From NCBI RefSeq assembly GCF_963506605.1, contig NC_083282.1, positions 45,198,001-45,262,000 on the forward strand: a DNA stretch of 64,000 bases. Direction: 5' to 3'. The notes under the pieces are model-generated. The model was not told the DNA's origin, searched no databases, and was given only the letters and a program-made list of their open reading frames with translations. This document shows positions 13,836-44,507 of this stretch, in pieces. The stretch's first letter is position 1; every line of letters starts with the position of its first letter. A program made the position numbers and the translations under genes. Source of the DNA: Zootoca vivipara. Its lineage: Eukaryota.

Positions 13836-15041
13836 TCAAACTTGCTGGTCCATATAGTTTTGTACAGACCGCCAGAGAGCACGAATGTTTCCCTCACCAA
13901 AACCTGTGGCCCCACATCGCTCTATAAGCTCCAGGAAGAAAGTATCTTCTGTAAAGAGAGGCTTGGTGAAGATCTGCATGAGGTATTGCTTCCCAAAAAG
14001 GCCTCCCGAGCCACTGTTGCCTCCTAAGTCAGTGTCCAGAAGGATGCCATGGTCCTTCAGGAGCTGAAGATTTTGCCCAGCTTGCCTTATCTCCTCCACC
14101 TTCCTTTTCTCACTGTAGTATGATAAGGGGGGCTTGAAAAAGTTTGCGCCAGATCTGGCCATGGCTGCAGCAGCCCCTATAATACCTGTGGTGTAGAGAG
14201 CCACGTGCTGGATGCCCGATCCACCGTGCTGTTCTAAGAAAGTATCCACCTGGTTCTTCTTTTGCTCTGGCAGAGACTCAGCTAGAATAATTTTACAGTC
14301 ATTGTGAAGCAGAGTTGAATCGCTCCCTTTGGACTGCATGGCAGTAAGACGAAGGCCCATACCAGCACCCTGGATTGTATAGCCATCAGTACCATTGTCT
14401 TGCTGGTGGATGGGGAAGCGCTGGAATCCCAAACAGTTCTTGTACCAGTCCAACACAGCTTGCGAGCTACCTTGGGGGCAAGCATAGGTGACATGGTCAA
14501 AATGTGTCACCTGGCCACCTGCCTGGAACTTCTTGGGAGCACCCTCTGCCATGTGGAAACCAGGCAGGAATGGTCCGCTGTACCGAGATCTGTCAAGTAG
14601 TGTGTGGCTGACGTTGCCTATGATGGATGCCACCACAGAATAAGTGACATGGCCATTTTCATCTCCCACAGCTGTGGGAGGGATGAGGATCTGACATCCT
14701 CGTTCCTGTAGGCTTTGGGAGATGCCAGGTACATCTTCTGCCTCAAAGCAAATGTTGGAGGCTGTACTGACGGCATACTCTAGGTCCACGTCATACAGGA
14801 TTCCTTTATCCTTGCGGCAGCCTGAAGATGGCACAGGCAGAGCGTCTCTCTTGGCAGGCTTCAGCCTTTCATTGACGAGAAAAACGGCATCGCCTCTCCG
14901 GAAGGCCAGCTGCCTGCTCCATTCTGCCACCCGTGCAGCAAACAGCTCGAATCCAAACTGGTGCACCAGGTTGCTGGCCAGCTGTTGCCCCTCAGGGACG
15001 TGGAACCCAATGTGGCACATCCGGTTCAGAAGACCAGGCAT
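13836..15041 (-). CDS. HPDL: 4-hydroxyphenylpyruvate dioxygenase-like protein, single coding exon, 401 aa from ATG 15041
   Basis: Uninterrupted ORF MPGLLNRMCHIGFHV...; VOC dioxygenase metal ligands FDHVTY, GIQHVAL, FLELIER and C-terminal GFGEGNIRALW; tail-to-tail with MUTYH as in other vertebrates. Confidence 0.96.
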   Translation of the reverse strand: MPGLLNRMCHIGFHVPEGQQLASNLVHQFGFELFAARVAEWSRQLAFRRGDAVFLVNERLKPAKRDALPVPSSGCRKDKGILYDVDLEYAVSTASNICFEAEDVPGISQSLQERGCQILIPPTAVGDENGHVTYSVVASIIGNVSHTLLDRSRYSGPFLPGFHMAEGAPKKFQAGGQVTHFDHVTYACPQGSSQAVLDWYKNCLGFQRFPIHQQDNGTDGYTIQGAGMGLRLTAMQSKGSDSTLLHNDCKIILAESLPEQKKNQVDTFLEQHGGSGIQHVALYTTGIIGAAAAMARSGANFFKPPLSYYSEKRKVEEIRQAGQNLQLLKDHGILLDTDLGGNSGSGGLFGKQYLMQIFTKPLFTEDTFFLELIERCGATGFGEGNIRALWRSVQNYMDQQV

Positions 15042-15130
15042 TGTGCTGTTTGAAAGGGTGGGCAATGGTAACACAGCTTTTGCTGCTAGACCTACAGAAA
15101 CAGAAAAGAAAGCCAGCTCAGTTGTTGTAG

Positions 15131-15276
15131 GGTGGGGAAGCTCAGTCGGTAGAGCATGAGACTCTTAATCTCGGGGTCATTAGTTCCAGTCCCACGTTGG
15201 GCAAAAGTTCCCTGCGTTACAGAGGGGGTTGGGCTGGATGACCCCAAGTGGTCCCTTCCAACTCTATGGTTCTATG
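15131..15276 (+). mobile_element. tRNA-Lys(CTT)-derived SINE with CR1-like 3' tail
   Basis: AGCTCAGTCGGTAGAGCATGAGACTCTTAATCTC..CCCACGTTGGGC matches tRNA-Lys-CTT, but the acceptor stem and T-arm are degraded. It is followed by the CR1-type tail GGTCCCTTCCAACTCTATGGTTCTATG. Confidence 0.85.
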
Positions 15277-23900: not shown

Positions 23901-24168
23901 TGATCTGACACAGTTAGCCTTCCTGCCTCTGTTCCTTCCCCCTCCCTTGCTCTTGTTAAGTTTTTTGATGCTGTGAGAACAGTCTTTAATGTCCTGAGAA
24001 CTTTGGGAGGAGGTGAAGCCCTACACACAGCTGCCTTCATCAGTTGTGGAGGATAATTCTAGGTACCTTATTTGATGCTGGACATTGTTTTGACAAACTG
24101 AGGCCTTGGGAGGGGGTGGCTAATGGATGATCTGCACATAGCCAGCCTTGGAAGCCACACAGGCTATC

Positions 24169-24175
24169 TATAAAA
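24169..24175 (+). promoter_or_regulatory. Candidate TATA box for SELENOP2
   Basis: TATAAAA about 760 bp upstream of the acceptor (24928-24929) of the ATG-containing exon; that acceptor implies a non-coding first exon upstream. Confidence 0.4.
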
Positions 24176-24434
24176 TCGGATGCTTTGGGCAGAGTTTCTT
24201 TGAAGCTCGTGCACAGATTGATCGGCCACAGGGCCGTGCAAACTGAGGCTACCTGGGGGAGTCGCTTTGCCGCTTCTTGAGGGCTTCCAAGTGGCAGATT
24301 GAAGTGCTTGCTTGGTATATGTATACCTTGCTTGCTGTTTCAGAATAAAATCTTTAAACTTCTCACTCACTTGTGCATTTTGTACTGCTTCTGAATCTCA
24401 TTTTAAAAGAACCACCACCTTGCCGTTGGCAAGA

Positions 24435-24655
24435 CAGGAGGATTAGACAAATTCATGGAGGACAGGGCTATTCATAACCACTAGATATGATGGATACCTC
24501 CACTGTCTGAGAAGCTTCTGCTTACCAGTCAATGGGAATCACAAATAGAGGGAGTGCTGTGGCACTAGGCATCTGGATGGCCACTGTGAGAACAGGATGC
24601 TGGACTAGATGAGTCTTTGGTCTGATCCAGCAGGAGGTCTCTTCATATGTTCTTA
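24435..24655 (+). mobile_element. CR1 LINE 3' end
   Basis: GGATTAGACAAATTCATGGAGGA...GGCCACTGTGAGAACAGGATGCTGGACTAGATG...TGGTCTGATCCAGCAGG...TATGTTCTTA. Confidence 0.7.
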
Positions 24656-24949
24656 ATGACCATGCTGGGAGTTGTACTGCAACAATATCCAGAGAGCCAC
24701 AGGGCAGCAACAACTCTTGCTGTAGCTGTAGCTGAAATCCTGGGCAGCTGATATGTGAGCGTGTCTTTAAGCATCCATTACTGTCACTTTCAAATACAGG
24801 GCACTAGGGCATCCATGTAGGACAATCTTACCTATGTTTACTCAGAAGAAAGTCTTCTGAGACTTGGAGGCTGCATCTGGCCTGCTGAGGGAAGTTCTTA
24901 TGGTCTTAAGCTGCTCTCTTCTACTTTAGGCTGAAGGGAGGTGGCCAGG

Positions 24950-27900
24950 ATGGGCTATTCAGCCCTAGCCACAACAACCTTGCTGCTGCTCCTGGCAATT
25001 GCTGCTACGCTGGCAGACGTGGCTGAGAACAGGACCCGAATATGCCAGCCTGCACCACTCTGGAAGATCAATGGAGTGGCCCCCATGGCTGGGATGGAGG
25101 GCCAAGTGACAGTGGTGGCACTGTTGAAAGCCAGCTGACAGTTCTGTCTCAAGCAGGCCGCCAGGTGAGTTCATAGTTCATAGATTGCCTGAGTCAGGGG
25201 CTGTTAGGTCGCAGCCACACCATACATTTGGTGCACGTGGCTTTCCCCAAAGAGTCATGGGAACCGTAGTTTAAGAGTGCTGGGAACTGTAGTTCTGTGA
25301 GGGGGTAAATCGCAGTTCCCATAATTCTTTGGGGAAAGTCACACGCTTTAAAAAGATGGCCTGGGTGTGACTAGAAAGTCAGATATGTGTTGGAACCCTG
25401 TATCTGGTTTTCAGCGGCAATATCACAACTCTTAAGGTCACATATTTGCCCCCAGGCTTTCTACCAGGAAACACAGAAAGGAACCGGTTGTCTATAAGCT
25501 CCAGTTCAACAATCAAAAATTGAGGCCTGGGCTGCAGCAGGCCAGATATAACATGCATATAGAAGGTGGCTGCAATTTTCCTGGTGAATTACAGCTCAAG
25601 CATAATATGTATCATTTAACTTATTGCTGGATCTATGTAGCAGGGACTGCTGCAATGGCAAGTCCAGTGAACTGATCAATGAAGGGGCCTCTGTCCAGCA
25701 GTGCAGGCTCATATCCCACATGGTATGTGCAGAGGGCAAAGGCTGGAACCTATATCTGTGCACTGCATTTCCTAAACGTTGCTTGTTCTTCCTCCCCATC
25801 AGCCTTGGCAGCTTGCAGAGGAAGCTGTCCCTTGAAGGAGTGACCAATGTCAGCTTCATGATTGTGAATGAGAAGACTCCTTTCTCCAGAGCTATGTACT
25901 GGGAGCTCAAACGGCATGCCCCAGAGGGAGTTCCTGTTTACCAGCAGCAGATTCTGGAGCCTGACGTCTGGCAAATTCTAGATGGGGACAAGGATGACTT
26001 TCTGATCTATGACAGGTCAGTGCTTAAGGGAGCAATTCTAACTCCCCAGCCACCCAGTCTGATGGGGTTTTTGGAGAGTCAGGGCCACTGCTGTGCATAG
26101 CAGCTGGGGCAGAAGGGAGGGAAGGCAGATCACTGAGCCAGCTTGGCTTGGAGCTGGTGTAGCAATTGAGCCTGGAACAAGCCCAGTTCTGGCAGTGGGA
26201 CCATCTCAGGATCCAATGGACTGCAGTCCGGCTCAATCCAGCTCCTTCCTTGACTGCTGAAAGCCCCTGCTGCCACCAGCAGGGATCCCATCAGCAGCGC
26301 TGGGGGGCAGAAGAGGGTGCTCCGTAGGCAGCTGATGATGGGAGACCAATGGGGGTCTGCAGGCCTGGGCAGAAGGAAGGAAAGTAAGATATATGGAATC
26401 CGGGATTCCTGAATGTGTTATCAAAAAGTCTGTTTGAGAACACATCTGGAAAGAAAGGACATACCATGATGTAAGTGTTTCTCTTTACCATCATGCCTCA
26501 CAACTGTTGGTGAGGAAAACCAGATTCTTCAGGCCAGGTTAGATTCATTTCTAGTGCAAATTAGTGGACTACAGGCTCTACTGACACTAAATTTATGTCC
26601 GTTTGTTTCATGGCTCTTGGGCTTTACAGGTGCAGCAGGCTGGCTTTCCACATCCAGCTGCCATACAGCTTTCTGCACTTGCCCTATGTTGAAGCAGCCG
26701 TGCGGTACACACACAGCAAAGACTACTGCGGCAATTGTTCCTGGTACCCCTCTAACAGCAGCCAGGAGGTAGGGACTTGAATCCCCTCATCAACTTCCTT
26801 TTCAACTATTTTGTTTAAGCCAGACGTTTCCTCATTTGCCCATCCTGAACTTTTGCCTGGGAATTCTAGGTTTCTGATCAGATCGGCCTTACAGCAGGAA
26901 TGTGGGAGGAGAAGGTGGAAGGGAGTGTTATATTCTACAGTATTGGGCCACTACAGCAAGCAAGGAGAAAGGATGTTGAGATACCACAAAGCATCTTTCA
27001 TCTTGGCAGGAAGTAAACCATCTTGAAATAAAAATCTCAGAAGCAAATTGCAGAGGGGGACATCAGGTCTGCCACAGTCACAGATAGTGTAGCGTGGAGG
27101 GGTCCAGGTTGGGGGGAATGCTAAACTCCCCCCCCCCCACTTGCAGCTTCTCACATATACACATCTTTATGCCCTCCCCCAAGTGCTTTTCTCCCCAGCT
27201 GAGTTCAGATACTAAAAGTGAGATTAACTTGGAGAAAAACACTTTGGAACAAAAGTTGTGTGGCATCAAGTGCAGGAAAGGTTTGGTTCCCCTCACCCAG
27301 GCACCCCTTTTGCTCTAAAGTCAACCCCACCTTCCTGTTTTATACATGGTGGGGCAAGACCTGGGTCTGCTGCCATCATGTACTGCTTGAAGCTCACCCA
27401 GTAGCCATTGTCTGCCCTCAGTTCTAGATAAAAATGAAATTAATAGCCTTAATTTGTCAGGTTGAAGTGTGTCAGGTTGAAGTGGGAGCATATTGTTCCT
27501 TGGATAGAAGAAATAGTAACTGCTGTCTTGTCCTGTGGTGTCACTTCCTGCTGCATCAGTAACCTGAAAGTTCATTCCTCAAGGTGGGACTGATGTATTG
27601 CCGATTTTAGATTTTTGCTGCCCTGATAGCCAATGCAGCAAAATATTGTAAATACGTTTTAAGCCATTTCGGCCATACCGAGAGTAAAGTCAAACAGATC
27701 TCCTTCCAGCAGTGGGTGCAGATTTTTCAGATCTGGAGAAATAAATCCTTCTTCCCTCCCCACTCTTTTGAGATATATATACCGTATATTCCAGCGTATA
27801 AGGCGACTGGGCGTATAAGACGGCCCCCCACTTTTCAAGTTAAAATATAGAGTTTGGGACATACTCTATATTTTATGTACTTGCAGCCGCGGACAAGCCC

Positions 27901-28866
27901 CAGCTGACTCTCTGGCAAGCCAACAGCTCGTGAGCAACAGCACCGGCAAAGCTGCTCCTCTCCCTCCTCCCTGGCTCGCTGTCAAACCTCGCAGCTCCAC
28001 AGAAGCGATTTCTGGCGCTGCAGACATGTTGGATATGGGCAGCACAGAATCAGAAATCGCTTCTGCGCAGCTGCGGACGCGATTCTGGTGCCACTCGGCG
28101 AGTCCCCGCGCCGGTTTAGCGCAGCGCGCAGGGGACTTGCTGAGCGGGCAGCTCAGTTCACGGACCAGCGGGGCAGTACCTGGCGTATAAGACTTTGGAG
28201 GAGATTTTTGGGGGTTAGAAAGTCATCTTATACGCTGGAATATACGGTATACTTGGCTTAAACTCCTGTGCAGCTTTTTGCCTCTCAAACTTTGGGCTTT
28301 TAAAAAACCATTTCTACGCCTATACATCCAGCATGTTTGCTCATTTAAACTTCTATTTTACACATTCTTTAAAACCACTTTTTAAATGGCAATCACCATT
28401 CTTCACAGCCAATTTCTCCTGAAAACAGAAAGTAGAAGTTGCTCTGAGCTCAGTTTATTTTAGAAGTTTACATATTTTGTCAAAAAGGGCTGAATGCAGA
28501 TCAATTCAGATATATATATATCCACCTTCATTTTCAAAAATATGTTTCTGTCTTCACCCTAAGCCCTTCTGTATGTACATGTACATATACTAGAATCTTT
28601 CATTACCTTCACAGATGAATAAGACAGCAAGTACTAACGTGACGACAACTGAGGGATCTGGGCACAAAGAGAAGCACCTGGAGGAACCAAAGTACCATCA
28701 CGATGAGCCAAGCCAAGAAGCACCTAGCACCAAGCCCACAGCCCATCACTATTCACATCATGGAGGAGTCGGCAACCATAAAGCCTTGGGTTTGAGTAGT
28801 ACACACCAGCCAGTTCTCCACTCTCAGAATCGCTCACAGAAGCATCAAACAAGGGAATCCCCATAA
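24950..28866 (+). CDS. SELENOP2: Selenoprotein Pb (SELENOP2), 272 aa, one in-frame UGA-Sec
   Basis: Exons 24950-25164, 25803-26015, 26630-26768 and 28615-28866, all GT-AG and in frame (819 nt). Signal peptide, GQVTVVALLKAS-U(TGA 25136-25138)-QFC, DVWQILDGDKDDFLIYDRC, LPYSFL..PYVEAA, YCGNCS, His-rich tail, no Sec-rich C-terminal domain, SECIS in the 3'UTR. Confidence 0.93.
27782..28247. mobile_element. Tc1/mariner-pogo non-autonomous element in the last SELENOP2 intron
   Basis: Perfect 21-bp TIR CCGTATATTCCAGCGTATAAG flanked by TA duplications; CpG-rich interior. Confidence 0.9.
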
Positions 28867-29353
28867 AAGATTTAAACTTCAGTGTATGCAACACCCAACA
28901 GTTAGCCATAAGCACACTCAGCACTAAGCAAGCTTTTAAGAAGAACTTACATGCATCAGAAGGAAGAAGTATGATGGTTCAGTTTTCAGCAGGGGAAGGG
29001 AAGTGACTGTTCCACTCCCTAAATTAACACAAACGTTCAAGGTCTCTCAACTGATAGCAGAGGGCACAACACAAACTTTTGTTGTGTCATATATGTGATT
29101 GGAAAGTTTAACTGCTTGTCCACAATGAGACCTCTATCCTCATTTTTAATCTGTCTCCCAATTAACCTCATACCCACCAGTTTTGTTCCACCAAGCCTTA
29201 AGGTGGTGTTCATCTTGGGCTCAGATTTTTGGATACATCACATTTCTGTGATGGACTGCCTAAGGAAGCCATCTTGTTTTCCTCAGGAACACAGAGCTGC
29301 TATGGTACTCAGCTTCTTGGGAAGCCAATTTTGACCCCCTTTTTGCATTTCCT

Positions 29354-29424
29354 GCTTTTGTGCACTCAATGAAGCACGTGATGTAAACTTTCTGTCATCA
29401 CATGCTGACACCGTACATAAAAGC
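29354..29424 (+). promoter_or_regulatory. SECIS element (type I) in the SELENOP2 3'UTR
   Basis: Helix I GCUUUUGUGCAC/GUACAUAAAAGC; AUGAA at 29369-29373; helix II GCACGUGAUG/CAUCACAUGC (9/10 pairs); apical AAA 29385-29387, 11 nt above the core; 3' UGAC 29406-29409. Confidence 0.9.
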
Positions 29425-29860
29425 ATGTCCTTGGAGATGGAAGGATGGGGATCAGAACTGGTATTAGCAGGAGGGTGACGTGACTGAGGCTGACTTTGAG
29501 CCTGGGGCTCAAGATTTTGTACATTAAAGTCCATGCCCACAAATTACTAGTTTGAAAACTGACATTTGTTGTGTTGCTGGATCTTACTCAGCTATGAGTG
29601 ATCGCCAAAGAAGAAGAAGAAGGATGTAAAGAACATTTGGTGTTTGTAGGAATGGAAGTGATGAGACAGAATTAGCCAGGTTTACAGGTATGTTGATAGA
29701 TGTAAGAAAGACAGAGAAGTCTGAGGTGAGAGTTGAGTTTGTCAGTGCTATGAGAGCTGAACAAGGGGGGGAAATGCCATGTATCAGGAAAATTCATGGA
29801 AAGGGATGCACTGCTTGCTGATTAAAAGTAGTAAAACTGTTTTTGGGGAAGAATGTTGGA

Positions 29861-29866
29861 AATAAA
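29861..29866 (+). terminator. Candidate SELENOP2 polyadenylation signal
   Basis: AATAAA downstream of the SECIS; ATTAAA variants at 29523 and 29821. Confidence 0.45.
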
Positions 29867-32454
29867 CTCTCTGAAATGAGCATGTTTGAAGTCTTTGCTT
29901 AATACCTTAATGTACAAATGGGGTCATTTATTTCAGACAGTACCCAGCATTGTAGAACAAGTGTTCACCTTCAACATTTAAGAGATGCCCCATAGTTTAT
30001 CTGCATTTATGGCATACTAAGCAGTCCTTATTTAGGTTCCGGTTCCTGTTATTTGTTGAAAGTCAATGAGTTGGTTCACACTGTACAAGTCCTCCACATC
30101 CCACAGTTTTAGGAAGCTACTGCTACAAATATTTACGGGAGGGTGTAATCTGTCTTCTTTATTGTATTGTTAATGCTGATAGGTATCCACCTATAATCTG
30201 TTTACTCCAAAGTAACCCTAGTTAGTAAAGCCGACTAGACTGCAATAGGTGGCAGTTTTTCATAGGTTTATGCCATTTCTTTGAAAGCCTCAATTCATTT
30301 TTTTTACATTTCTGCTGGCGGCTAAAGGGACCAATCTTAAATTTACAGGACCAGCCATAGGTATAACATCTATAATAGGTAGCTCAAAATTATAACTCTG
30401 CTGATTACACTCACACATGCTGTAGACTGGAGTGAGTAACTTATTTCAGCCCAAGGGCCACATTTGCTTCTGGGTAACCTTCTGAGGGCCGCCTGCCAGT
30501 GGTGCACAGGGACAGAGGTCAAAGTGAATGAAGCAACAATAGTTAATTTTACCTTTCGTACCAGTAGGCTAGTTTCTTCATACTCACACATTCCTCTCTA
30601 TTCACCCAGGCAAGCAAAGAAGCATGATCAGAATTCAACGACGCAGTCCAGCCACTCAAAAAGAGGGTGTGAAGCAGTGACGTGGCCTGGGGAGAGCCTC
30701 AAGGGACAGATAATGAGTTCTGGAGGGCCTGAGGTTCCCTATCCTTGTTCTGTTCTATAGGATACATTTATCATCATATAATTTCATGCCTGCCCAGGGT
30801 GTGTGCCTTTATGTGTTAGCTTGTTAAAGAAACAGTAACAATACACACACATAGAGAGACAATACCTTAAAGGTTTGGGGAAATAAAACAGCTCTTCTTC
30901 TGGCCCCAGATATTAATAAGGCTTGCTGCTGGTGTCAGGCAAGCTTTTCTAGGAAAGACAGGGCAGTATAACTGGAAAGACCCGACCACAGTCCCTGAAA
31001 GTGGGGAGATCTGAAGAAGGGCCTCCTGGTATAATATTAGTAGTTCAGGAGGTTCTTGTGGAATAAGGCAACCTTTGAAATTCTGCAAGATGTGGTGATA
31101 GCTACCAACTTAGAAAGCTATAAAAGGGCATTAGGCTGTCAGTGAGGTGCTTATAGTTAACAACCCACCTTTGGTGTAAACAGCATACTTAACTGCAGAT
31201 TGATTTATCCCCTTGTGTATATCAAAACTTTCCTGATATCTGTACATGCTGGCCACTCTTAACATACATGCATTAGAGCTATAACATAATTTATAGCTTT
31301 TGGTAATATGTCATATAATTAATCGTCTTCACCCAGGGCATAACCAGCACAATGGACTCTAAATAAAATGCTTGCAACTGTGATTCAACTTGCAGGCATA
31401 GTTGCTTAACAACTAGTTTAATGTTCTTAGCAATCTTGTTCTCCACAATACATAACATAGTAACAAACAAAAGCAATATCCCCACCCCACCGTGTAGCCC
31501 GTATGGTAGCAGCTATGACCTGGTGTAATATTTGATTACTTGCCCAACTGACATGCAAAGATTTAGCTGTCCTTCCCACATGCTGTTCCTTTCCCTTTTT
31601 ATGTTCCTTTAGTTCATTTCCTACTTATGTACATACCTAGCTGAAACCATCCCTGCCCCTCCAGAAATCTGCAGAGGCCCAATCTACAACAGCTAGGTCA
31701 TAATTTAATTGTTAAGAGACTATTTTCTTGCTGATAGTTTTGTACCAACCAAAGTAATTATATGGCTGGCTTGTTGTTGATTTTTAACATTCCAATTGTA
31801 TTTATAATCTATTCCTTTTATTTCTATGTACAGTATTACCATTATTACCAAATAAAAAACCTTCAGTAGTACCAGTGCTAAAAAAAGATGGGGCAAAATG
31901 TTTTGCTTAGGACAACAACATTCCTACCTAATGCTGGCCTTGGGCTCTGATCCAGCTTTCCTGATGCCCTCTGCCCCAGCCCACAGCTCCCATTATCCAA
32001 ACTAAACTCCTTTGCGTCATGTCCTGTTTGCTTACATTTGCAGCAGAGTCCACAGGTTCACAGCAAAACTGGAGCAAGACTTTTATTATCATGTTTGATG
32101 CTAATCTCATCTAACATGCAGGGCAAATATTTGCTAAAGATCCTCTTTAAACTGGCCTCTCTGTTTGCAGCAGCCAGAAAATCTCTTATAGTTTGCCTGT
32201 GTATATGCCTACTCAGAATAAAGCCTCATTTGAGTTCTATGGCACTTACTGCCAAGTATGTGGGTATAGCATTGCAGATGTAGTCTCTTTTTGATGGACA
32301 AGGCTGGCAGAGTGAAGCAACCACCACAGGTGGTAGATGCTAAGGGGATAAAATGGAGGCAAGATGTTGGAAGAGAGAACTGCCTATGCCACACACAGCC
32401 TCCCCTGCTGCCCTCAGGCATGGTAGAGGATGCAGTCCCATTGCAAATGGAGAA

Positions 32455-32597
32455 AGGAGATGTCTGAAGGCTGCCCTGCATAGGGAAGTTTTGTAATGTT
32501 TAATTATGTTTTTATATATGTTGGAAGCAGCCCAGAGAGGCTGGGGCAACCCAGTCAGATGGGTGGGGTGCAAATAATAATTTTTTTATTATTATTA
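32455..32597 (+). mobile_element. L2-like LINE 3' end
   Basis: Reverse-complement homolog of 9490-9650 with an AAT/TTA tail. Confidence 0.65.
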
Positions 32598-35500
32598 CAT
32601 GTATTTTGCCTTGGTACTAAATTGCATTAGGGTTTTGTTTGACTACATGATTACAGAATCAAATCAAATAGACGCTCAGTTAAAGGAGCCTTAACATTTA
32701 GGGTAGAGTTGGTAGAACAGCAAAGTCTTTCCCATAGTTTTTTTTATTGTCAAAGCTCTCCAGAGGGAAGCAGTAACAATATTATTGATGTTAACATCTT
32801 CCCCTCCAATATTTTTTCTCCATGGATGAGCTCCAATATTAGAAGTGACTTTGACTGGATGGGAAGCATTTTGGCACGGAACTACGGAAAAATAAGTACT
32901 GAGTGGAAGGAGGGTTCGGATCCCCTTACCCTTCTGATTCTTTGCCTTAACACAAGTCTACAGGGTGGGTAGTGTAGCACACAGACAGAGGAGTGATAAA
33001 ATTTGCTAGGCTACATTCTGTGAGGAACAGCCCTCCTTCCTTCCTCCCTCCCTTCATGTAAGCTCTATTTACAATTCCCCCTGCATTTGCACCCATAAGC
33101 TTGTCTCTTACTTGACTAGCACCAAGGACCATGAGGTTGTGTAAACATCTGTACAGCTGCCTTATCTTCTGCTTAACACTGTCATTTGCTCTAGAGTCCC
33201 TTTAACCCTGTTCATCTGAGGGATCAGCTAGAGAATGAAAAGCAGAATGGTGTGTGTGAGAGAGAGAGATGAGAAGGGAAGGAGAGGCTGTGTCCATGTC
33301 TATTTCTCCATGGAATTCACACTATGGGCTGCCTTCAGGAGATGTAGTACTTCTGTTGGAAGCCTCAAAAGTGGGACAGCATTAGACTTTAATCAGCAAA
33401 GGAGGGGGCAGCTGAGGGGTAAATATGCTTTAATGCCTCTTAAGTACACTTTCTCTGCCCAATCCACTTTCCCCTGTTGGGCAGTGAAGTAAAAAGAAAC
33501 AAAAGGTTATCTAGCGAATTCAGAAGGGTTATGTTAACTGGCTTCATTATTCAATTAATTCATGCATGAATGTATAAGACTGACAGAAACAAGAGGAAAA
33601 TGTCTAATGGTGCTGTAGAAACTCATTTATAGAAAATGGTCTGGCACATTTAAAGTTTACACATGTAGAGTAATTGCTTCCATTGTAATGTTATGTTCAT
33701 ACAATATTCAGGAGTATTTACATAAGTGATACATAATAAAATCCAACATGCTAATAAGTTTCTAAAACTTATTTAAGAGTCATTCCCTATAGATAGGCCA
33801 TGATTGGTTATTCTTTAAGTTTGCAATCTTATACATACTGATTAGAGTGTAAAATCTTACATGCACACTGAAATCACTAGGATTTTCTTCTGGATATGAA
33901 TGCATAGGATTGTGCTTTGAATCTTTCACCATCTGTTGTATAAGCAAGAGTCCTCATATGTAATTCCCAAGTATAAAACTCATTTATCAAATAATTCATT
34001 CAAAGCAGTATGCTTCTGGTTTACAATGATATTCATTTTATGAGGAGCTCAGAAAAGTTTAAGACATTATTTCAAACCATCATTTTAAACAATATCCCCG
34101 AAGTTTGGGGATGCCTGTCTTAGAGCCATCCAAAGAAGCAGGGCAAGGGGGATAAAGTGAAGGGACTGCCTCAGAAGAAGGCACCTTGAATTAACCAGCA
34201 GTCTGCTAGTAATCCTTACTGTATTAATCCACTTGACGTTATCAATTTAAAAGAGGATCCCAGCTATAGGATGTATTTGAGTATCACCATAATTGATGCT
34301 CTGCAATCTTAGATGATCAAGCCTTTTAGTTTAGTGCCTTGTGGGGACATTTCCTAATGTTAGGAGGCAGTGCCACATTGTGGGTTCTGTCAGTTAGTGC
34401 AGCAAGTACTGTTTCCCGCTTTCTTAGGAAACCCCCTAAATTGCAGGATGTTCAACCTGAATGGATTCTCAAGATCAAGCACTTTTGGCAGCTCTTTTGT
34501 ATTCTAATGCTTGGACAGGTACTGGAAGTTTAAGATGCTATTTGATCAATTTATATATCGTATTTACTCCTTTCATATTTCTGGGAAGTGGGTTGATCCT
34601 CCAATTTACTGAGCGCAGGTGTGAAACATGTCATCTTGATCCACCTGAGTCTGGCTTCGTGTTTCAGGACCTAGTCAGCAGTAGTGGTCCTGATGGATGA
34701 CCTTGATCACATGAGACGCAGGAGGGTGTGACCCTGCAGCTCACTCTTTTTTTGACAACAATCATGGTACCCACCTGGACCAGCCGTCTTGGGTGGAGAT
34801 TTGTGGAACTGTACTTCACTGGTTCCGTTCCTTTCTGCAGGACCTTTCAGAGAATGACTCTGGAGGACTAGAAATCCCTGGCATTTCTACTAGTGGGTCT
34901 CTCATGGTACCTTCACATCCCCAATGCTTCTAAACATCTACCAGGTTACCTGAATGGCCACCTTATCCCTTATAAACCAGCCAGATCATTGCACTCATCT
35001 GAAGAAGCCCTCCTGACACAGATGTAGTTTCTACAAGAACCAAAGTTTAGCGTAGCAGCACAGGTGCTCTGGAACAGCGTTTCAGACATACCACTTTTGA
35101 TAATTTGTCACCGATAAAAGTTGCTTTCTCCAGTCATTTTTAGATTATTAGTTTGATTCCTTGTTGGTAATTTGATTTGTATTTTATGTTGTTTTATTGT
35201 ACTGTATATACTGCCATGATTTTTTTCTATGGCTTGGCAGTTCATACTCTTAGAATCAGAAAATAAATAATGTGGAGAAATTACAGATCTGCGTAAGTAC
35301 ACAAAATGTTGTGAGAGGGAGAGGACCATATCAGAGCCAGTACTGATAGGAGGGCAATTAGGACTATGCAAGGAGTAAGATCAATGGATGATTTTGGGCT
35401 TGCGGTTCAGGTTTTGGATAGTGAAGGTCTGTAAGTCATGAGTTATTAGACTGAAGGCTGAAGCATCTGTTTGGCAACATGGTTAACTAAGTCTATGCAG

Positions 35501-35859
35501 CAGGTGTTGCATAAAGCTTAGGGTTTTTACATGTTGATATGTATTTGATTATCTTTTCACACCCAGCTCAGAAATACCATCTCCCCTCAAAGGAGGACAA
35601 AGACTTAAGCTTTCTAACAGAAATTATGCCCTTTCAGAAGAGCTATTGCATGTTCCTGCTATACTGAGATCACCCAATTAATTAGATACATAAAAATCTG
35701 ATTTTCCCCGAGTTTAATGACAGTACAAAACATCAGAAAAACCGACTGTTCTACATGCATCCCTAGGCCAATCATATACATGGTACTGGTCCTTTTTATC
35801 CACATTAGCACAAGGAGCAATTTCCCTTTCCTGGTTCTGATCAAAAGAACATACAGTAT

Positions 35860-35910
35860 GTTGTTGTTGTTGTTTAGTCGTTTAGTCGTGTCCGGCTCTT
35901 CATGAATAGT
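35860..35910 (-). mobile_element. BovB/RTE LINE extreme 3' stub
   Basis: (GTT)n TTAGTCGTTTAGTCGTGTCC; 12-bp TSD AACATACAGTAT (35848-35859, 35911-35922). Confidence 0.8.
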
Positions 35911-36155
35911 AACATACAGTATACTATTAACAATAGCTATTAAGTACTGACCAATGTTTCAATACATAATCCATTTACTCCAAAGCTGTCCTAGCAACGT
36001 AAATTGGATTGATAAATGGCATCTGAACTATAAACCAGTTAGCTCACAATAATTTTACTATTAAAAATAAAGGGAATGACAAGTACAGGTCTGCTTTTAC
36101 TTATATAGGTTACAGAATAGATGCCTTGTACAAAAAAAACAATCAAACAGCGCAT

Positions 36156-39100
36156 TTATTTCTGCTTGGAGAAGTACTCTTTACTCTTCTGAACATCAGG
36201 TTTGATAGTGTCTTTCCCAGGATGCCAGCCAGCAGGACACACTGAGGAGATAATAATATTACCTTTTAAGTGACTCCAGGAATACAGACCGAAAACAGCA
36301 TGCAAAGAACTAAGTTGTTATGTCCATCACTAGACTTCACACAAGATGACTTGGATCACTACAAGTTACGTCATCTATTTGACTAACTTCTGGAGCTAGC
36401 AGCAGTCACCACCCCACCTCTCCTACAGATGGGCTTCTTGATGCAATTGTGTACCTGGGTTGTACATGACAGCTGCCTCTTGGAAAAACCAAAGTGATTC
36501 ACAGTTTATGTATATAAAATACTAGCCAAATAAATGCCTGACAGCAACAGAAGACTGAAATAATGACAAGAGAAGGGGATTGGATGGAATATGGGTCAGA
36601 GTTGAGAGCAAAAGACTAGTATTATGTGTCATTGAAAAAGAGCCACTTTGAGGGAATGAATGAAATGGGAATGAGATTAGAGAGCCAATGAGAGGCATGT
36701 GTAGAAAAGGACAGACATTATGAAAATTAGAACAGTCTGTACACAGTCCTGAACGTTATGTTCCTTAAGTAAATACATGTTTCTGTTTTAACTGTTCTGG
36801 TCAGGGTAGATTCTAACTGGATTTTTTTTATCAATGAGATACTGTTTTAGAGAACTATAGTCCTAGATTTTCACATTTATGGTTCTTTACACATAGTAAC
36901 CCCTTTTGCAGGCAATAGGATACAGGAGTACATCATGAACTGTTAAGTGCATCCTTCTTTTTCACTGAGAAACTTACTGCAGTTCATGCTTGCCTAGCCT
37001 GAACTTGACAGTCTTACCTTCTCCATGTTTGTCTGTAAACTGAAAAGCCTGAACTAGCCGGAGTGTTTCATCAACTGAGCGACCAACAGGGAGATCATTT
37101 ATTGTGATCTGGCGCAAGATTCCCTTATCATCAATGATAAAGAGGCCCCTAAAGAGAGAAGACAGACACACACACGAATGTATTGTGGCAGAGTACAAAA
37201 CTACAAGGTAGCATTCAATACCAAGTTCTGTATCATTTTAGTTCTTCTGAAAACATCAAAACCAGTTCTCTTAAGATCTGGTACAACTTCCACCCTATAT
37301 ATGAATTAAAAGCAAAACTATATGGAGAATCATTTGCAATTCCAAGCACTAAAACCTATATAGAATTCATAAAGGAATGTGGTAAAACTTCCTACATATG
37401 GCCTCTTTACCTTTCACCCTTCAAGAGACTTCTAATTTGAATGTTCAAACTTTTGTTACAAGATACAGTGGTACCTCGGTTTACGAACACCTCGGTTTAC
37501 GAACTTTCGGTTTACGAACTATCCTAACCCGGAAGTTAGTAAACCGAGGTGCCGGAGGTCTACTGAGTGTCCGATGCCTTCGGGGAGGCCGGGCCTTCGC
37601 TCCGATGCCTCCTGGAGGCCCGCAGCGAAGGCCCGGCCTCCCCGAAGGCATCGGAGCGAAGGCCAAACCTCCCCAAAGGCATCGGAGCGTCGGATACCTT
37701 CGGGGAGGCTGGGCTTCGCTCCGATGCCTTTCACAGACACTGTCCTCCTCCCAGTGAAAAGGACATGCATAATTAAGGGCAGCCTTATTAACAGGGCTAG
37801 TAAAGTGTGCATGTTGACTCAAAACTTGAGTTACTTATTTTCTGTGGGCTTCTCCCTCCAATTAAGTTTTATCTTTTGGAACCTTTATCATGCAGTGCTC
37901 TATATACCACAAGTCACTAAGTCACAAGTCACTAAGAGGCTGCAATGGTAACTTTACCTGTAGGAAATGCCTTCATCTTCTTTTAGTACTCCATACTTTT
38001 TAGAAATTGCACGGTTTGTGTCAGACACCAAGGGAATGCGCATGCAGCCTAGTCCACCCTGTTTTTTGGGTGTGTTGATCCTGTTAACAAGAAGAGGAAA
38101 GGCATTTTATAAATCAGGTTAGTATTTCAATAATATCCTTGTCCTTCTGTACACTTACACATTCAACTGCAGCAGAATATCTAAAGCACAGGAGATTGCC
38201 TGTCTAGTTTCATGTGTTAGTTTCAAGTCCCAATCCTTGTTACTGGAGTGGTGTGGGAACAGCTTCCTAGTGGCCCGGTCCCACACTGTTCTTACAATAT
38301 CCAATAAAGGAAACCCACATGGTTCTTACCATTCTTACCATAATGGCCAGAGCAAGCAGCTTCATTGGGTCTAAGGTTACAGCTCAAGCTGCTTGAGTTC
38401 AGGGACTTAAGATGACTACACTTAAAAAGCTACAGGACCAGATCAGAACAGGATTGTGAAGGGTCGGGCACAAAACCCTGAACCAACCCCCTTTCTAGTA
38501 CAAATTGATTTGTGAGCAGGATGGTGTTTTCTCCCTCTTGCACAGGACATGAGGCTTGGGGGGGGGGAGAAATAGCTGACAATAGTCACTTGTTGGTAGC
38601 TGCTTCTTTCACCCATTTAACAGGCTTATAACTATTAATGTAGGAAACCCCCAGAGAATAAAAAGGCTGAGGTCCAAATATTCTTACCAGGCAAGATGGC
38701 AAAAGTGAGAGTCAACGGAAGCACCAATCACTTCGCAGTTTATTTTTCTAAACTCCTCAGACCTGTCACTGAATGCAATGATCTCAGTTGGGCAGACAAA
38801 GGTAAAGTCAAGTGGATAGAAGAAGAACACAACGTATTTCCCTGGTGAAGAAGTTAACAAGTTAATCTCTTACATGAAGATCTCCATCATAGCAAAGCTA
38901 GAAGCAATTCAAAAGTCAAAATTTCTGATTTCAAAGTACATTAATAGCTTTGTGGCATTCTACCCCAGAGGTGAGGAGCCTTTTTTTGGCATGGCAGGCC
39001 GGTTGTTTATATTCTGCCACCATAGCTAGCAAACTTTGCACACGATCACCTTACTTGTCAGTCATCTGATGTCATACTGGCACCAGTTGATTTGACAGGT

Positions 39101-39825
39101 GAGTTGGCCCGCTAAGGGGGGGGGGAATAGAGATAAATAGTTAGATAGGTAGATATAGATATATATCACAAAGCAGGATTGAACTCCCTGGGCATCTGCC
39201 ACACCCGAGGTCACATATGGGGCAGGTGGGTGTGGTTTAAGAAAATCATCCTAGTGAGCCTAGTTTGGACTGTAGGCTGAAGGTTCCCCACCCATGCTCT
39301 CTTCTCTCCTTGATCTCCAAATACTGTATACAAAAGAAGTGCTGCAATTAAAAGTCATAACTATTTTCTTCCAAGCTAGCAGAAGTGACACATGCAAGGA
39401 CAACATACATACTACGGTAGAACAGAATAGAGTACCTACATGCAGGTGTTAGTAACTTTCTGAGGACTTATTTGGAATACTTTGTTGTTGTTTAGTCGTT
39501 TAGTCGTGTCCGACTCTTCGTGACCCCATGGACCATAGCATTTGGAATACTATCCAATGCATTTTTGTGAATGCCAACAAAACTTCCACTTCAGAGCCAA
39601 AGAAGGTTATGTTGTTAGTCCAGACAGTAAGTTAGCGTTTTATACATGTCACATATTTATCAGTACCTCAGTAACCCCTTGCCAACAAATACAAATGCAA
39701 CATGCTTTATTGCACTTACCTTTGTACTGAGAGAGTGTGATTTCTTTGAATTGCCCATCTGGCATTACAGCCGTGGCCAGAAAGTCTGGGGCTGGCTTCC
39801 CAATGTGAGCCTCTCCTGCTGACAT
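36156..39825 (-). CDS. PRDX1: Peroxiredoxin-1, 199 aa
   Basis: Minus-strand exons 39825-39720, 38841-38688, 38080-37958, 37148-37018, 36241-36156 (106+154+123+131+86 = 600 nt). Peroxidatic FTFVCPTE (C52), GGLG, resolving VCPAGW (C173), C-terminus SKEYFSKQK; divergent from AKR1A1. Confidence 0.97.
37466..37732. mobile_element. Tigger/pogo-like DNA transposon fragment with internal repeats
   Basis: TA followed by CAGTGGTACCTCGGTTTACGAAC, repeated CGGTTTACGAAC subterminal motifs and direct/inverted CCGATGCCTTCGGGGAGGC units; only one end seen. Confidence 0.7.
39482..39539 (-). mobile_element. BovB/RTE LINE 3' stub
   Basis: Matches the end of 44508-44717; 12-bp TSD ATTTGGAATACT (39470-39481, 39540-39551). 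Confidence 0.85.
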
Positions 39826-40350
39826 TCTGACTGGAGCTGGAGAAAGTTTGAACTTGTTAGTTTCTGTGGCTTTTACGTTGACCCACCCCAGAAGAGGAAA
39901 CCGATTAGCAAAAGTTTAGCATACATTTAAAATACAATTTAGAATGTGCCAGACTGAACAGAACTACTGCAGGTTTGCCAAGATATACCAATAACCTTTA
40001 AATGCCAAGACAACTATTTCATTACCTCAGTATTTGGACCAAAGGGAAAAGAACCTTCACTATCTGTATACAGTATTCAATACTTTTTAAAAACACAATC
40101 GATGTAGCACACAAAGCAGATGTTAAATGTTCCACATGCTTTAATTTAAGCAGTATCTGCTGAGTTACAAACTCCATGGGTACAAGTAAGTAAACTCTAC
40201 TTTTACCCTTCAGTATCTACTCTGCAGCATTGGGGAACCCTCAGCTCAAGAGGTTATTTCAGGCAAGCAAGCTACGCCCATACTCTTTGATTTCAAACTA
40301 CACGGGCAAAGGAAAGCGGCCCCACCCACCAAAGTTGAACTGCAGAGTAT

Positions 40351-40468
40351 GAAGTGTGCATGCATACAAAAGCTCATACCAATGACAAACTTAGTTGGTC
40401 TCTAAGGTGCTACTGGAAGGAATTTTTTTATTTTGTTTCGACTACGTCAGACCAACACGGCTACCTAC
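40351..40468 (+). mobile_element. Penelope-like pLTR fragment with a truncated, mutated hammerhead
   Basis: GAAGTGTGCATGCATACAAAAGCTCATACC...AAACTTAGTTGGTCTCTAAGGTGCTACTG; flanking direct repeat CTGCAGAGTAT (40340-40350, 40469-40479). Confidence 0.8.
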
Positions 40469-40872
40469 CTGCAGAGTATAAAGTCTCAATAGGAGTCATA
40501 GGGCCCCTCTGCCAAAGGTTTGCATAAAATAATTATGAGCAAGGCCAAATGTCATCATGCATGCAGCCTGAAATTCATTTAAAAGTATGTACTTCAACTA
40601 AGTTTATATTGCCACATAATTTTAAATATATGAACCTTAACACAACCTAATTTTCTACTGTGGTTGCAGCCAAGCATCACATTGCATTAGCATAGTTTTT
40701 TAAGATCTCATGTGACTCAAGCGTACATACCAATCACCTTTAAATGCCAACATTAATTGTCGCAACAGAGCAGAAAAATATTAGATGTGTGCATCCTGCC
40801 ATCTTTAAGCAAACTGGAAAGATACTGAGGGAAGTGCTCAGCCAAGTGTAAATGTATCAATTGTGTTTTATT

Positions 40873-41047
40873 CACAGAATCACAGAACTGTAGAGTTGCA
40901 AGAGACCCCCAAGGGTCATCTTGTCCAACCCCCCCTGCAGTGCAGGAATCTCAACTAAAGCATCCATGACAGATGGGCACCCAACCTCCACTTAAAAACC
41001 TTCAAGGAAGAAGAGTCCACAACCTCCCAAGGAAGTCTGCTCCACCG
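40873..41047 (-). mobile_element. CR1 LINE 3' end
   Basis: CACAGAATCACAGAACTGTAGAGTTG...GGTCATCTTGTCCAACCCC...AAAAACCTTCAAGGAAGAAGAGTCCAC is the reverse complement of a CR1 tail. Confidence 0.75.
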
Positions 41048-41113
41048 TCGAAACAAAATAAAAAAATTCCTTCCAGCAGCACCTTAAAGACCAACTAAGT
41101 TTTTATATTGGTA
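41048..41113 (-). mobile_element. Penelope-like pLTR fragment abutting the CR1 piece
   Basis: TCGAAACAAAATAAAAAAATTCCTTCCAGCAGCACCTTAAAGACCAACTAAGTTTTTAT matches the other Penelope fragments. Confidence 0.75.
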
Positions 41114-43025
41114 AACGAGAGACACTTCAAGGGAAAATCTATACTAATAGGAACATGAAACTTAACAGCATTATGTAGAACAAGAGTGGCTATTCTCCAC
41201 TTCAGGGCCTAATCCAACCCTCCCACAAGCATTTTTCCCCTTCCCACCATCACCCATGGGGCAGCAGGGGCAAAATGAAAAAAAAAATAGATGTAGAACT
41301 GGGTTGGGGAGTGGAAAACTGTACCCTTTAGACTAAAATTATTTATAAAAGTATATTTATAAAACCACCTGCTAAAGTATCAAGGTGAGGTACAATACTG
41401 TAAGTATATAATAAAATGCAAAACCATTAAAATATAAAATTAAAAGTAATGTGAAATATGCATTCTAAGCATGTTTAATAAGGGTGGTTGCAACCAGTTC
41501 CCAAAGGAGCAATCTGATAGCCACATGAGGAGCAATAATTCTCCTTCAGGTGATCTGCCTGGATCAGCTGCATAGGGAGGGTTGTCTGACTCTGTGTGCA
41601 TGCATGTGTATGTGAAAGCGTGTACAGCCCCCAGATGTTTGAATGTGACCCTTGGGCCAAAACATTTAAAAAGGAATTTTAAACAACAATACATTTTAGT
41701 GGCTTTAGTAGTTCCCCACCAGTGTTAGAAACTCCTATTGTTCTAGGCGCATTTTGTGACAGGGAATTTCATTAGGGTAAGCAGTTTTTGAGCTCTGGGC
41801 GCAATACTGCACCTAAGACTTCAGAATAAAAATCCAGAGTGGAAGGAAAGGAGGACCTTTTTCTGCCTCTCCACTTCTAGCTACTCTCTGAAGACTGGAG
41901 AAGAGACCCTCTTAAGAATATTAGGGCAAGAACTAGACCGTATGAAAAATGAACATACTGTAATATTTTAGCTGCAGTTCATTCATTTTCAGCTTTGTAT
42001 TCTTGTTATAAAAAAGTGTGCCTAAACATTCTGTTGTTGCACCCATAACCTAGGTTTAAGGTGCCATTTAGCTCAGGCTTTCACATCTCAGTTTCTAACT
42101 CTGTTCCCCATACAACTTGGCTCTAGCATAAGAAAATAACAGCTGTGTTATGTTAAAAGTAAGCCTTGAGATTAACTGTGTAATGCACAAGAAGTATTCC
42201 AAGTATAAACTTATTACATCCCAAAACAGGCAACGGTTTAAAAATCAGAGTTCCAGATGATCATCTTAACCCCAATACTCAATGCCAAAAATAATAGCAA
42301 CACTACTCAAATCAATGCAGTTAACTAAACGGTTTAGTTTTCCATTACGCAATTGTATGGAAATGAAACCGATAAGAGGAAACTCGTTCATAACTACGGT
42401 AGCTAGCCTTCGCCCATTTCAACTCTCTTGCACACTGTTCATTCGCTAAACTCCATGGAGCTCAGTAGCACCTTTCATGTACCTGAGCCCAGGTACAACT
42501 TCGACCTTACTGTATAATTAATTTTTAAAATGCCATCTCTCGTGGAACACAAGACAACGGCCCCTAACCCACGGAGGCAGCAGCCTTCCAACTCCCAAAT
42601 TCCCTGTTTTGTGTCCAAGCATCCCAACTTCTCTCCCTACCAAGATAAATGCAGCTTCACGCCCAACTAAACCGACCATCAGCTCATTGAAACGACCAGC
42701 GGAAGGAGCCGGTGGCAAACCCAACAGCAGCATGCACGGCGAGAACCGCGACGTCCTTTGAAGTTCATTGACTTAATAAAGCAATTTCACTTAATAGCTC
42801 GGTCGCCGGTCGCACCGAGAGCTTTTTCCCACCCTGCAGGCTGCACTTGCCAACTTCCGAGCCTCTTTTACACCGGGATCATTTGTTGAGCCAGGAAACC
42901 GAGGCAAAGACCTTCGAGGCGCTGAAAAACGAACTGAAGCTCTATCAAGGCAGGAAACTGAACTCAGCTCAGCTCTCCCTCCACCTGTTGGGCTACCAAG
43001 CGCCGCGGAATAGAGCCCAGCTAAG

Positions 43026-43027
<2 letters not shown>

Positions 43028-43110
<83 letters not shown>
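43028..43110. repeat. Compound (CA)n(GA)n microsatellite
   Basis: About 24 AC units followed directly by about 17 GA units. Confidence 0.97.
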
Positions 43111-43113
<3 letters not shown>

Positions 43114-43480
43114 CCATCGGGAAACAGTCTACAATTTTTTCGACACACAAAACAGCAGATCTCAAATACTATTAATAAGCACATTCTATTACCGCAAACG
43201 AACAAATCATGTATTAACTGCAGGCCAGCCCTGCCCTCGCCCAGATACTCATTTTGGACGGCGGAGAGAGGTATGTTTTACCTAATGCGAAATTAACTGC
43301 TTCCTCAAATATCTTCTTGCTTGCCGCTCCCGGCTCGAAACAAAAAAAGATCCAGCCCTGCAGGCAGTGCCCCTTCTGTTTTATACCTTCTCAACTCTCG
43401 CGAGAGTACGAAGCCGAAGAACTTGTCGGTTGGCGCCTCCTTCGCGGCTCTTCTGCCAGCCGGCGTAGCTGCTGCGCCAG

Positions 43481-43496
43481 CATGACTTTGCATTTT
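43481..43496 (+). promoter_or_regulatory. Antioxidant response element (NRF2/sMAF), copy 1
   Basis: CATGACTTTGCATTTT fits RTGACnnnGCA with an AT-rich 3' flank. Confidence 0.7.
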
Positions 43497-43820
43497 GCGG
43501 CTTTTTGTTCGCTAGCATAACTTTGGTGGTGCTGGTTTTAGAGTCGGGTGTTGTTGTTTTTTCTGGTTGGTGGATGGGTGAGAATCAGGGCCAACCGTAC
43601 TGCACAGATCTTGATAGTTTTTTGGGGGAAAGGTGCCCCCGCCTCCCCTTCGACAGATCGCCGGGGGTGGGAGGAAGAAACAATGAACTCTGGCTGCAGA
43701 ATGATGGTTGCATTAGACTCGGGTTTTATGGGTGATGCAAACCATGCATGACTACAAAGGGGGAGCGAAGATGGTTGCAATCGTTTCACTGAAACCGTGT
43801 TGTGCAACCGATCTGAATTG

Positions 43821-43836
43821 AAAATGCAAAGTCATG
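43821..43836 (-). promoter_or_regulatory. Antioxidant response element, copy 2 (inverted)
   Basis: AAAATGCAAAGTCATG is the exact reverse complement of copy 1. Confidence 0.65.
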
Positions 43837-44507
43837 TGGAATAGACAGTTTGCTGTGTGAAAGGGAAGGACTTTGGGATTTGCCCAATTAACACCACAGC
43901 TGGGTCGCAACGATAGTGCTTGAGCGAAACTTGGGTCACATGAATAATTCTGTTTTCAGATAGATGTGACTCGTTGGCATTTAAACTATCGCATCCCACT
44001 ATTGTAAAAATGCGGAAACCTCATAGATTCTATTCATTCTGGGATCTTTCATTTCACAACTTTAGTTTTTGGTGTAGACATGTACATTGCTTCAGACTAG
44101 TTGGGTTCCTGCCATACAATTTACAGTACAACTTGCTGACATAGGAATATCCATAAGATATTTAAGGATCATACCAAAGGCCTGTCCAGTCTCATGTTTC
44201 CCACAATGCCCAATCAGGTGCCGCCTGGGAGGCCAAAAAAGCATGAGGTGAAAACATATCCCTCTGCCTTTGTTGCCACAGCAGAAGTATCAAGGTACTT
44301 CTGAACCTGTAAGTGATATATAATCAACATGACTAACAATAGCTGCCTACAGTCTCCCATCTTCCTCTATAATGAACTCAAAATTGCTGTCCCACATAAA
44401 GCAAAAGACAATGGCCCATAAATCCTGAATACAAGCAGCATTCGTACACAGAATTCTCCATTTTGTGTCTAAGCATCCCAGATGACACACTGTTAACAAT
44501 ATGAGTA

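Follow-up and report, generated by a model that had tools for sequence, protein, structure and literature searches.

A lone type I SECIS hairpin in the transcribed 3' UTR of a lizard SELENOP2 gene likely directs selenocysteine insertion at its single in-frame UGA

SELENOP2 (SelPb) carries one selenocysteine (Sec) in fish, birds, platypus and opossum, was lost in placentals and has Cys at the equivalent site in frogs and sharks, according to passages in PMC2397514, PMC3316567 and 10.1101/2025.05.29.656587. The lizard DNA analysed here, a stretch of 64,000 nt to which we refer as the window, contains a SELENOP2 gene interrupted by one in-frame UGA, which raises the question of whether the locus also holds the signal needed to read that codon as Sec. 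A hairpin downstream of the gene is the sole SECIS-shaped element found in the transcribed SELENOP2 3' UTR, and we infer that it very probably directs Sec insertion at the single in-frame UGA, codon 63 (UQFC). A preliminary description of the locus had taken this hairpin as support for recoding of the UGA, and that view is borne out by the anatomy of the element, by its being the one such element found in the transcribed UTR of a SelP_N gene with a single UGA, and by the presence of a separate SELENOP1.

The gene comprises four exons with GT/AG introns and 272 codons, and its only in-frame TGA in the assembly lies within KASUQFC (a UxxC motif; Table 1). Pfam SelP_N scores above cut-off in three of the four exons (the scan took in 99 of the 187 ORFs listed for the window and left out ORF 30370–30597) and, judged from its sequence, the frame past the UGA is conserved as SelP_N. 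A SelP_N domain with one predicted Sec in UxxC and without a Sec-rich tail is that of SELENOP2/SelPb. No strong hairpin is found just 3' of the UGA, where folding gives −2.9 kcal/mol.

Table 1. Features of the SELENOP2 gene and of its SECIS hairpin, in window coordinates
Feature	Position	Strand	Remarks	Evidence
SELENOP2 coding exon 1	24950–25164	+	Hydrophobic N-terminus, likely signal peptide; UxxC motif	
In-frame TGA, codon 63, predicted selenocysteine	25136–25138	+	1,132 spliced nt upstream of SECIS core	
SELENOP2 coding exon 2	25803–26015	+		Reading frame, RNA, Pfam
SELENOP2 coding exon 3	26630–26768	+		Reading frame, RNA, Pfam
Last exon, coding part	28615–28866	+	His-rich tail, no UGA; stop TAA 28864–28866	
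3' UTR, to end of RNA cover under same species label	28867–29930	+	AATAAA at 29861	
SECIS element, type I, whole hairpin	29354–29424	+		Folding, Rfam alignment, own grammar, SECISearch patterns, pairing
Helix I, 5' arm	29354–29365	+	Pairs with 29413–29424; pair probabilities 0.87–1.0 except at mismatch	
Internal loop, 5' side UCAA	29366–29369	+	3' side is ACC, 29410–29412	Pairing
Core, 5' strand AUGAA	29369–29373	+		Sequence; aligned to Rfam consensus core
Helix II, 5' arm	29374–29383	+	Pairs with 29396–29405; 9 of 10 pairs	
Apical loop, 12 nt	29384–29395	+	AAA at 29385–29387	Pairing
Core, 3' strand UGAC	29406–29409	+		Sequence; Rfam alignment

All eight protein homologues returned carry SelP_N, and three of the eight are named SelPb. 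The SelPb-named entries are 60–74% identical to the lizard protein in exon 1 and lizard orthologues 74–88%, the best database match (labelled Podarcis muralis) being identical over the aligned 83% of that exon. In seven of the eight entries the Sec codon is skipped or garbled, the turtle entry lacking just that residue, and a public entry for the identical protein (P0003) skips codon 63 and lacks the last exon. Such skipping usually betrays a Sec codon that the annotation has avoided, a common fault (a passage in PMC12822975). The eighth, the caecilian SelPb-like entry P0008, has Arg at the selenocysteine position (RHFC vs UQFC), neither Sec nor Cys, which either a genuine loss or an error of annotation may explain; the word 'caecilian' is absent from the text of 10.1101/2025.05.29.656587, passages of which mention just Cys in frogs and sharks. 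A scan of metagenome contigs returned no distant orthologues.

A second SelP_N gene of the same genome, near 44.90 Mb on a different contig (G000:C11), is SELENOP1 (SelPa). It is 49% identical to SELENOP2 in exon 2, its UGA-rich last exon has 12 UGA in an open stretch, and it has two SECIS matches 681 nt apart. Because this multi-UGA, two-SECIS gene sits separately on C11, the gene in the window is the single-Sec paralogue; the earlier assignment to a single-Sec SelPb rather than to SELENOP1 thus stands, with one UGA and one SECIS here. The first SELENOP1 element shares with our candidate the UGAA 5' core and the A-U top pair, but differs in a predicted extra apical helix (type II).

The hairpin begins 488 nt past the stop codon. 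Its core quartet opposes U29370·C29409, G·A, A·G and A29373-U29406, and the tandem G·A/A·G pairs are therefore present (5' UGAN, 3' NGAN). Helix II has no bulge and, in the assembly, a sole mismatch (C29377·A29402), which places it within the rule of 7–15 pairs, under three bad pairs and no bend found in supplement S4 of PMC3753652. Helix I pairs at 11 of its 12 positions, with a C29363·A29415 mismatch and a G29360·U29418 wobble, and closes an internal loop of 4 + 3 nt. Exactly 11 nt separate the core from the AAA, which has unpaired probabilities of 0.90, 0.67 and 0.71 and supplies the unpaired AA that a SECIS requires 11–13 nt above its core. The hairpin is type I, with the AAA in the apical loop and no helix III kept, because relatives carry both substitutions and indels in the part of the loop that follows the AAA. 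The preliminary description was accurate as to the AUGAA/UGAC quartet, the apical AAA 11 nt above the core, the paired helix I and a position about 490 nt downstream of the SELENOP2 stop. Its 10-bp helix II does span ten positions, but nine of them pair in the assembly.

The same description called the element canonical. This holds insofar as every SECIS part is present, but the 3' core reads UGAC rather than KGAW and the score falls short of a match at the Rfam gathering threshold. UGAC is off the narrow consensus UGAN/KGAW (given in a section of PMC3753652); KGAW is nevertheless a preference and not a defining rule, because the SECISearch patterns ask just for NGAN and the SELENOF-locus element of this genome has UGAG. 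Above the G·A tandem stands a Watson-Crick A-U pair, as in the SELENOP1 element that scores 40.3 bits; excerpts of PMC1874613 report a non-Watson-Crick pair at this place as important in a selected RNA. Compared with type I elements (RF00031; human GPX1, GPX2, DIO1, SELENON and SELENOV, from part of the class list in PMC2761289), the candidate is alike in its AUGA/GA core, helix II spacing, apical-loop AAA and helix I-closed internal loop, and unlike in its UGAC, the C·A mismatch of helix II and the sub-threshold Rfam score.

The element lies within transcribed sequence. Over 24000–31500 we used three runs of the same species label that are RNA by record (X19–X21) and one contig set of that label, X1, which is likely RNA; for X1, as for the sets from relatives (X8, X9, X13 and X14), this is a guess. 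All three SELENOP2 splice joints occur in RNA, in 3, 9 and 4 reads of X19 and in one X1 contig that runs through all three. Mean depth over the bin holding the SECIS is 15 in X19, 2.9 in X21, 0.14 in X20 and 8.0 in X1, against 0 in repeat-free intron bins, and cover extends from the last exon across the SECIS to about 29770–29930. Read strand was left unused, since strand bias flips along the gene. No single record in X19–X21 or X1 joins the stop codon with the SECIS, the X1 contigs breaking at 28956/28971; in each of X8, X13 and X14 one contig spans the SECIS and reaches upstream of its aligned part, by 1,199, 987 and 598 nt respectively, which would take in the stop if the contigs are colinear.

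As initially noted, the hairpin lies upstream of the candidate poly(A) signals. ATTAAA at 29523, ATTAAA at 29821 and AATAAA at 29861 are all downstream and all leave the element in the mRNA, and weak CATAAA variants occur at 28862 and 29416. Twenty-two X19 reads begin at 29767–29770 and X1 extends to 29929. More than one poly(A) site may be in use, each of them downstream of the SECIS. The contigs of the four relatives imply ends near 29.68, 29.82, 30.4 and 30.84 kb if colinear, and in the assembly no standard signal lies 15–35 nt upstream of the point near 29770 where the X19 reads stop. Between 28600 and 29770 the X19 reads show many differences from the assembly, most reads being 90–99% alike, which suggests that X19 represents a distinct lineage.

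The Rfam covariance model aligns the candidate in register, but weakly, and the check proposed at the outset is to that extent only partly favourable. Rfam returned no match in the whole window at gathering score and no SECIS match in 28800–31500 at E up to 10. On 111 nt, RF00031 (SECIS_1) aligns all 64 positions in register on the plus strand with 16.2 bits (E 0.77, cut-off 35), and a miRNA family unrelated to it ranks higher, on the minus strand. For comparison we took eleven other SECIS-like elements of the genome, which are themselves predictions behind GPX, DIO, SELENOF and SELENOP1 exons and, in two cases, behind unnamed genes (the GPX and DIO labels are our own); a further GPX locus (L012) had been excluded before this count, having no SECIS in 4 kb of a stretch that probably ended inside the gene. 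Ten of them score 40.3, 29.9, 29.7, 28.2, 31.2, 20.1, 29.8, 26.3, 19.4 and 18.3 bits, with an upward bias for the four picked by Rfam itself (L002–L005), and the eleventh, the second SELENOP1 element, is not listed by RF00031. The cut-off is thus passed by one of the eleven, and the candidate scores below ten of the eleven. Because the other ten also fall short, a score under the cut-off is no refutation, and the Rfam SECIS cut-off misses most of the likely SECIS elements of this genome. A model of our own built from six other elements of the genome missed the candidate; it is uninformative on this point because it also missed four of five held-out elements and found the fifth at E 4. A MAFFT alignment of the eleven elements was out of register and was dropped.

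Three of the comparison hairpins deserve separate mention. L003 (G000:C6:36149670–36149728, minus strand; 29.9 bits) and L005 (C6:19984197–19984257, plus strand; 28.2 bits) are well-formed predicted SECIS elements. The best candidate downstream of a multi-exon GPX gene on G000:C2 (L013:3389–3452, minus strand; 20.1 bits) has AUGAC, an 11-pair helix and AAA, yet CAAG in place of the 3' NGAN; its core may be non-standard, the assembly may be wrong at this point, or the hairpin may not be the true element.

Sequence variation bears on whether the element is still in use. Among the differences listed, position 29377 is T in X19, X21 and X1, which turns the helix II mismatch of the assembly into a U-A pair, and it is T also in three of the four relatives (X8, X9 and X13). 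In all four relatives 29398 T>C breaks a helix II pair and creates another A·C mismatch, so that X14 has two such mismatches in helix II, and 29360 G>C turns the helix I wobble into a mismatch. Among X8, X9 and X13 the apical loop differs 3' of the AAA by two substitutions (29388 C>A and 29389 T>C), by one inserted nucleotide and by a deletion of 3 nt. No change is listed in the core or the AAA of any of the four related runs, although an unchanged 10-nt core is expected by chance at this divergence with p 0.53. Variable sites number 6 of 71 in the element and 14 of 250 in its flanks (Fisher p 0.41), i.e. there is no excess conservation, and the four close relatives, whose divergence is too small to test structure, show no compensatory base changes.

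These data could be read as a SECIS that is true by descent but decaying or nearly inactive, in a gene heading in this lineage for the loss already seen in placental mammals. The low Rfam score of 16.2 bits, the one to two A·C mismatches of helix II in the assembly and relatives, and conservation no higher than in the flanks would all fit, as would the loss of SELENOP2 in Eutheria and its Cys forms in frogs and sharks (passages in 10.1101/2025.05.29.656587). We nevertheless consider decay very unlikely: nothing but the UGA interrupts the frame of 272 codons, spliced transcripts show the gene to be expressed, its lizard orthologues retain the exon 1 identity given above, the core and AAA are unchanged in all four relatives, and the human GPX3 SECIS, described in part of PMC2761289 as weak yet functional, itself has two A·C mismatches.

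Pattern searches and folding likewise single out the element. The region 29340–29440 folds at −31.1 kcal/mol (z −3.85), with none of 200 shuffles as good; the minus strand of the same region folds equally well (z −3.92), something to be expected of any hairpin, and stability alone therefore gives no strand. A SECIS grammar of our own, which scores the core, the spacing, the unpaired AA and the energy of both helices, has the candidate as its single match on both strands of the window, and elsewhere in the genome it recovered seven of the eleven comparison elements together with two off-target matches. (It replaced a first grammar, strict and ungapped, which missed the SELENOP1 elements.) Run on one strand of 150 copies of the window shuffled in blocks (9,600 kb in total), our grammar gave 50 matches at loose cut-offs, none of them as stable as the candidate by cut-offs taken from the candidate itself; about 1% of stretches of 2 kb would hold a loose match. 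The published SECISearch patterns, re-implemented from supplement S1 of PMC3753652, recover six (strict) and ten (default) of the eleven comparison elements, and both match at 29369. In the window they give five strict and four default matches, among which the candidate has the lowest energy (−24.3 vs −10.8 to −19.2), and it passes the SECISearch3 filter rules (loop 8–30, stem 7–15, no bending, energy under −4). Under the published grading of that program it collects 3 points and no penalty, which would make it grade A with a Covels score of at least 15 and grade B with a lower one.

That the locus has one SECIS only, as first proposed, agrees with these searches: no second element appears in 28841–33000 (plus strand) at very loose grammar cut-offs, or at 29369–44482 (plus strand) with the strict or default SECISearch pattern. 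The single-SECIS status holds within reach of the patterns used, which could miss a non-standard second element. The idea that the hairpin is a stable SECIS-like structure by chance, with the recoding signal elsewhere or the UGA a true stop, can appeal to the looseness of SECIS patterns (the strict one matches four other places in the window), to an Rfam match weaker than that of a minus-strand miRNA family and to the equally good fold of the minus strand, but it is barely credible given that none of the 50 shuffle matches in 9,600 kb is as stable, that the hairpin is the sole candidate within 15 kb behind a gene needing one and that the frame beyond the UGA is conserved as SelP_N.

Delivery of selenocysteine at UGA involves eEFSec and Sec-tRNA. 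In the mechanism we propose for the lizard mRNA, the tandem sheared G·A pairs would form a kink-turn bound by SBP2 (as described in parts of PMC3753652, PMC2761289 and PMC1874613) and helix II would give the unpaired AAA its proper spacing. eEFSec would then deliver Sec-tRNA to the UGA 1,132 spliced nt upstream, a distance well clear of the requirement of more than 51–111 nt. The predicted product would be secreted, with a thioredoxin fold and a single Sec among its 272 residues, as against a stub of 62 residues.

The element may be of weak-to-moderate strength, a prediction made because it has U three bases before AUGA, a G-C pair near the base of helix II and, like the weak GPX3 element, an A·C mismatch. 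The first two of these together predict weak recoding in human SECIS elements according to passages in PMC2761289, and the position of the G-C pair was judged from the text of that paper, apart from its figure. By extension, the helix II variants (no, one or two A·C mismatches, from U/C at 29377 and U/C at 29398) might tune Sec insertion between individuals and species, although we regard this as unlikely.

Vertebrate SELENOP2/SelPb (excerpts of PMC2397514, PMC6301783 and 10.1101/2025.05.29.656587) and the lizard gene share one Sec in an N-terminal thioredoxin-like domain, a His-rich tail without a Sec-rich region, four coding exons and one SECIS; one SECIS per SelPb is given for salmonids in a passage of PMC6301783. 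There is no difference in kind between them, the comparison being one of gene layout. The single-Sec, single-SECIS SELENOP2/SelPb is already well described, and the lizard hairpin is a further ordinary member. Our literature search found no description of this particular element; the supplements of the preprint 10.1101/2025.05.29.656587 may list the gene.

In the window, SELENOP2 has MUTYH-like and HPDL-like genes upstream and aldo-keto reductase exons downstream, and a literature search on the names of these neighbours (for synteny) yielded nothing relevant. The first is represented by helix-hairpin-helix and NUDIX_4 exons at 3376–3759 and 7555–7965 (plus strand), likely MUTYH, a name that follows from the domain pair, and the second by an intronless 4-hydroxyphenylpyruvate dioxygenase-like frame at 13836–15164 (minus strand), likely HPDL. 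The aldo-keto reductase exons lie at 57220–57450 and 59444–59725 (plus strand), and between them a GIY-YIG fragment at 58961–59308 (minus strand) is likely a Penelope-type repeat.

The hairpin backs selenocysteine at codon 63 of the lizard SELENOP2 and otherwise adds little beyond annotation. Its natural helix II variants would offer a cheap reporter test of the effect of mismatches on recoding strength. If those variants did tune Sec insertion, recoding strength would be a standing polymorphism of a gene lost or converted to Cys in other tetrapod lineages.
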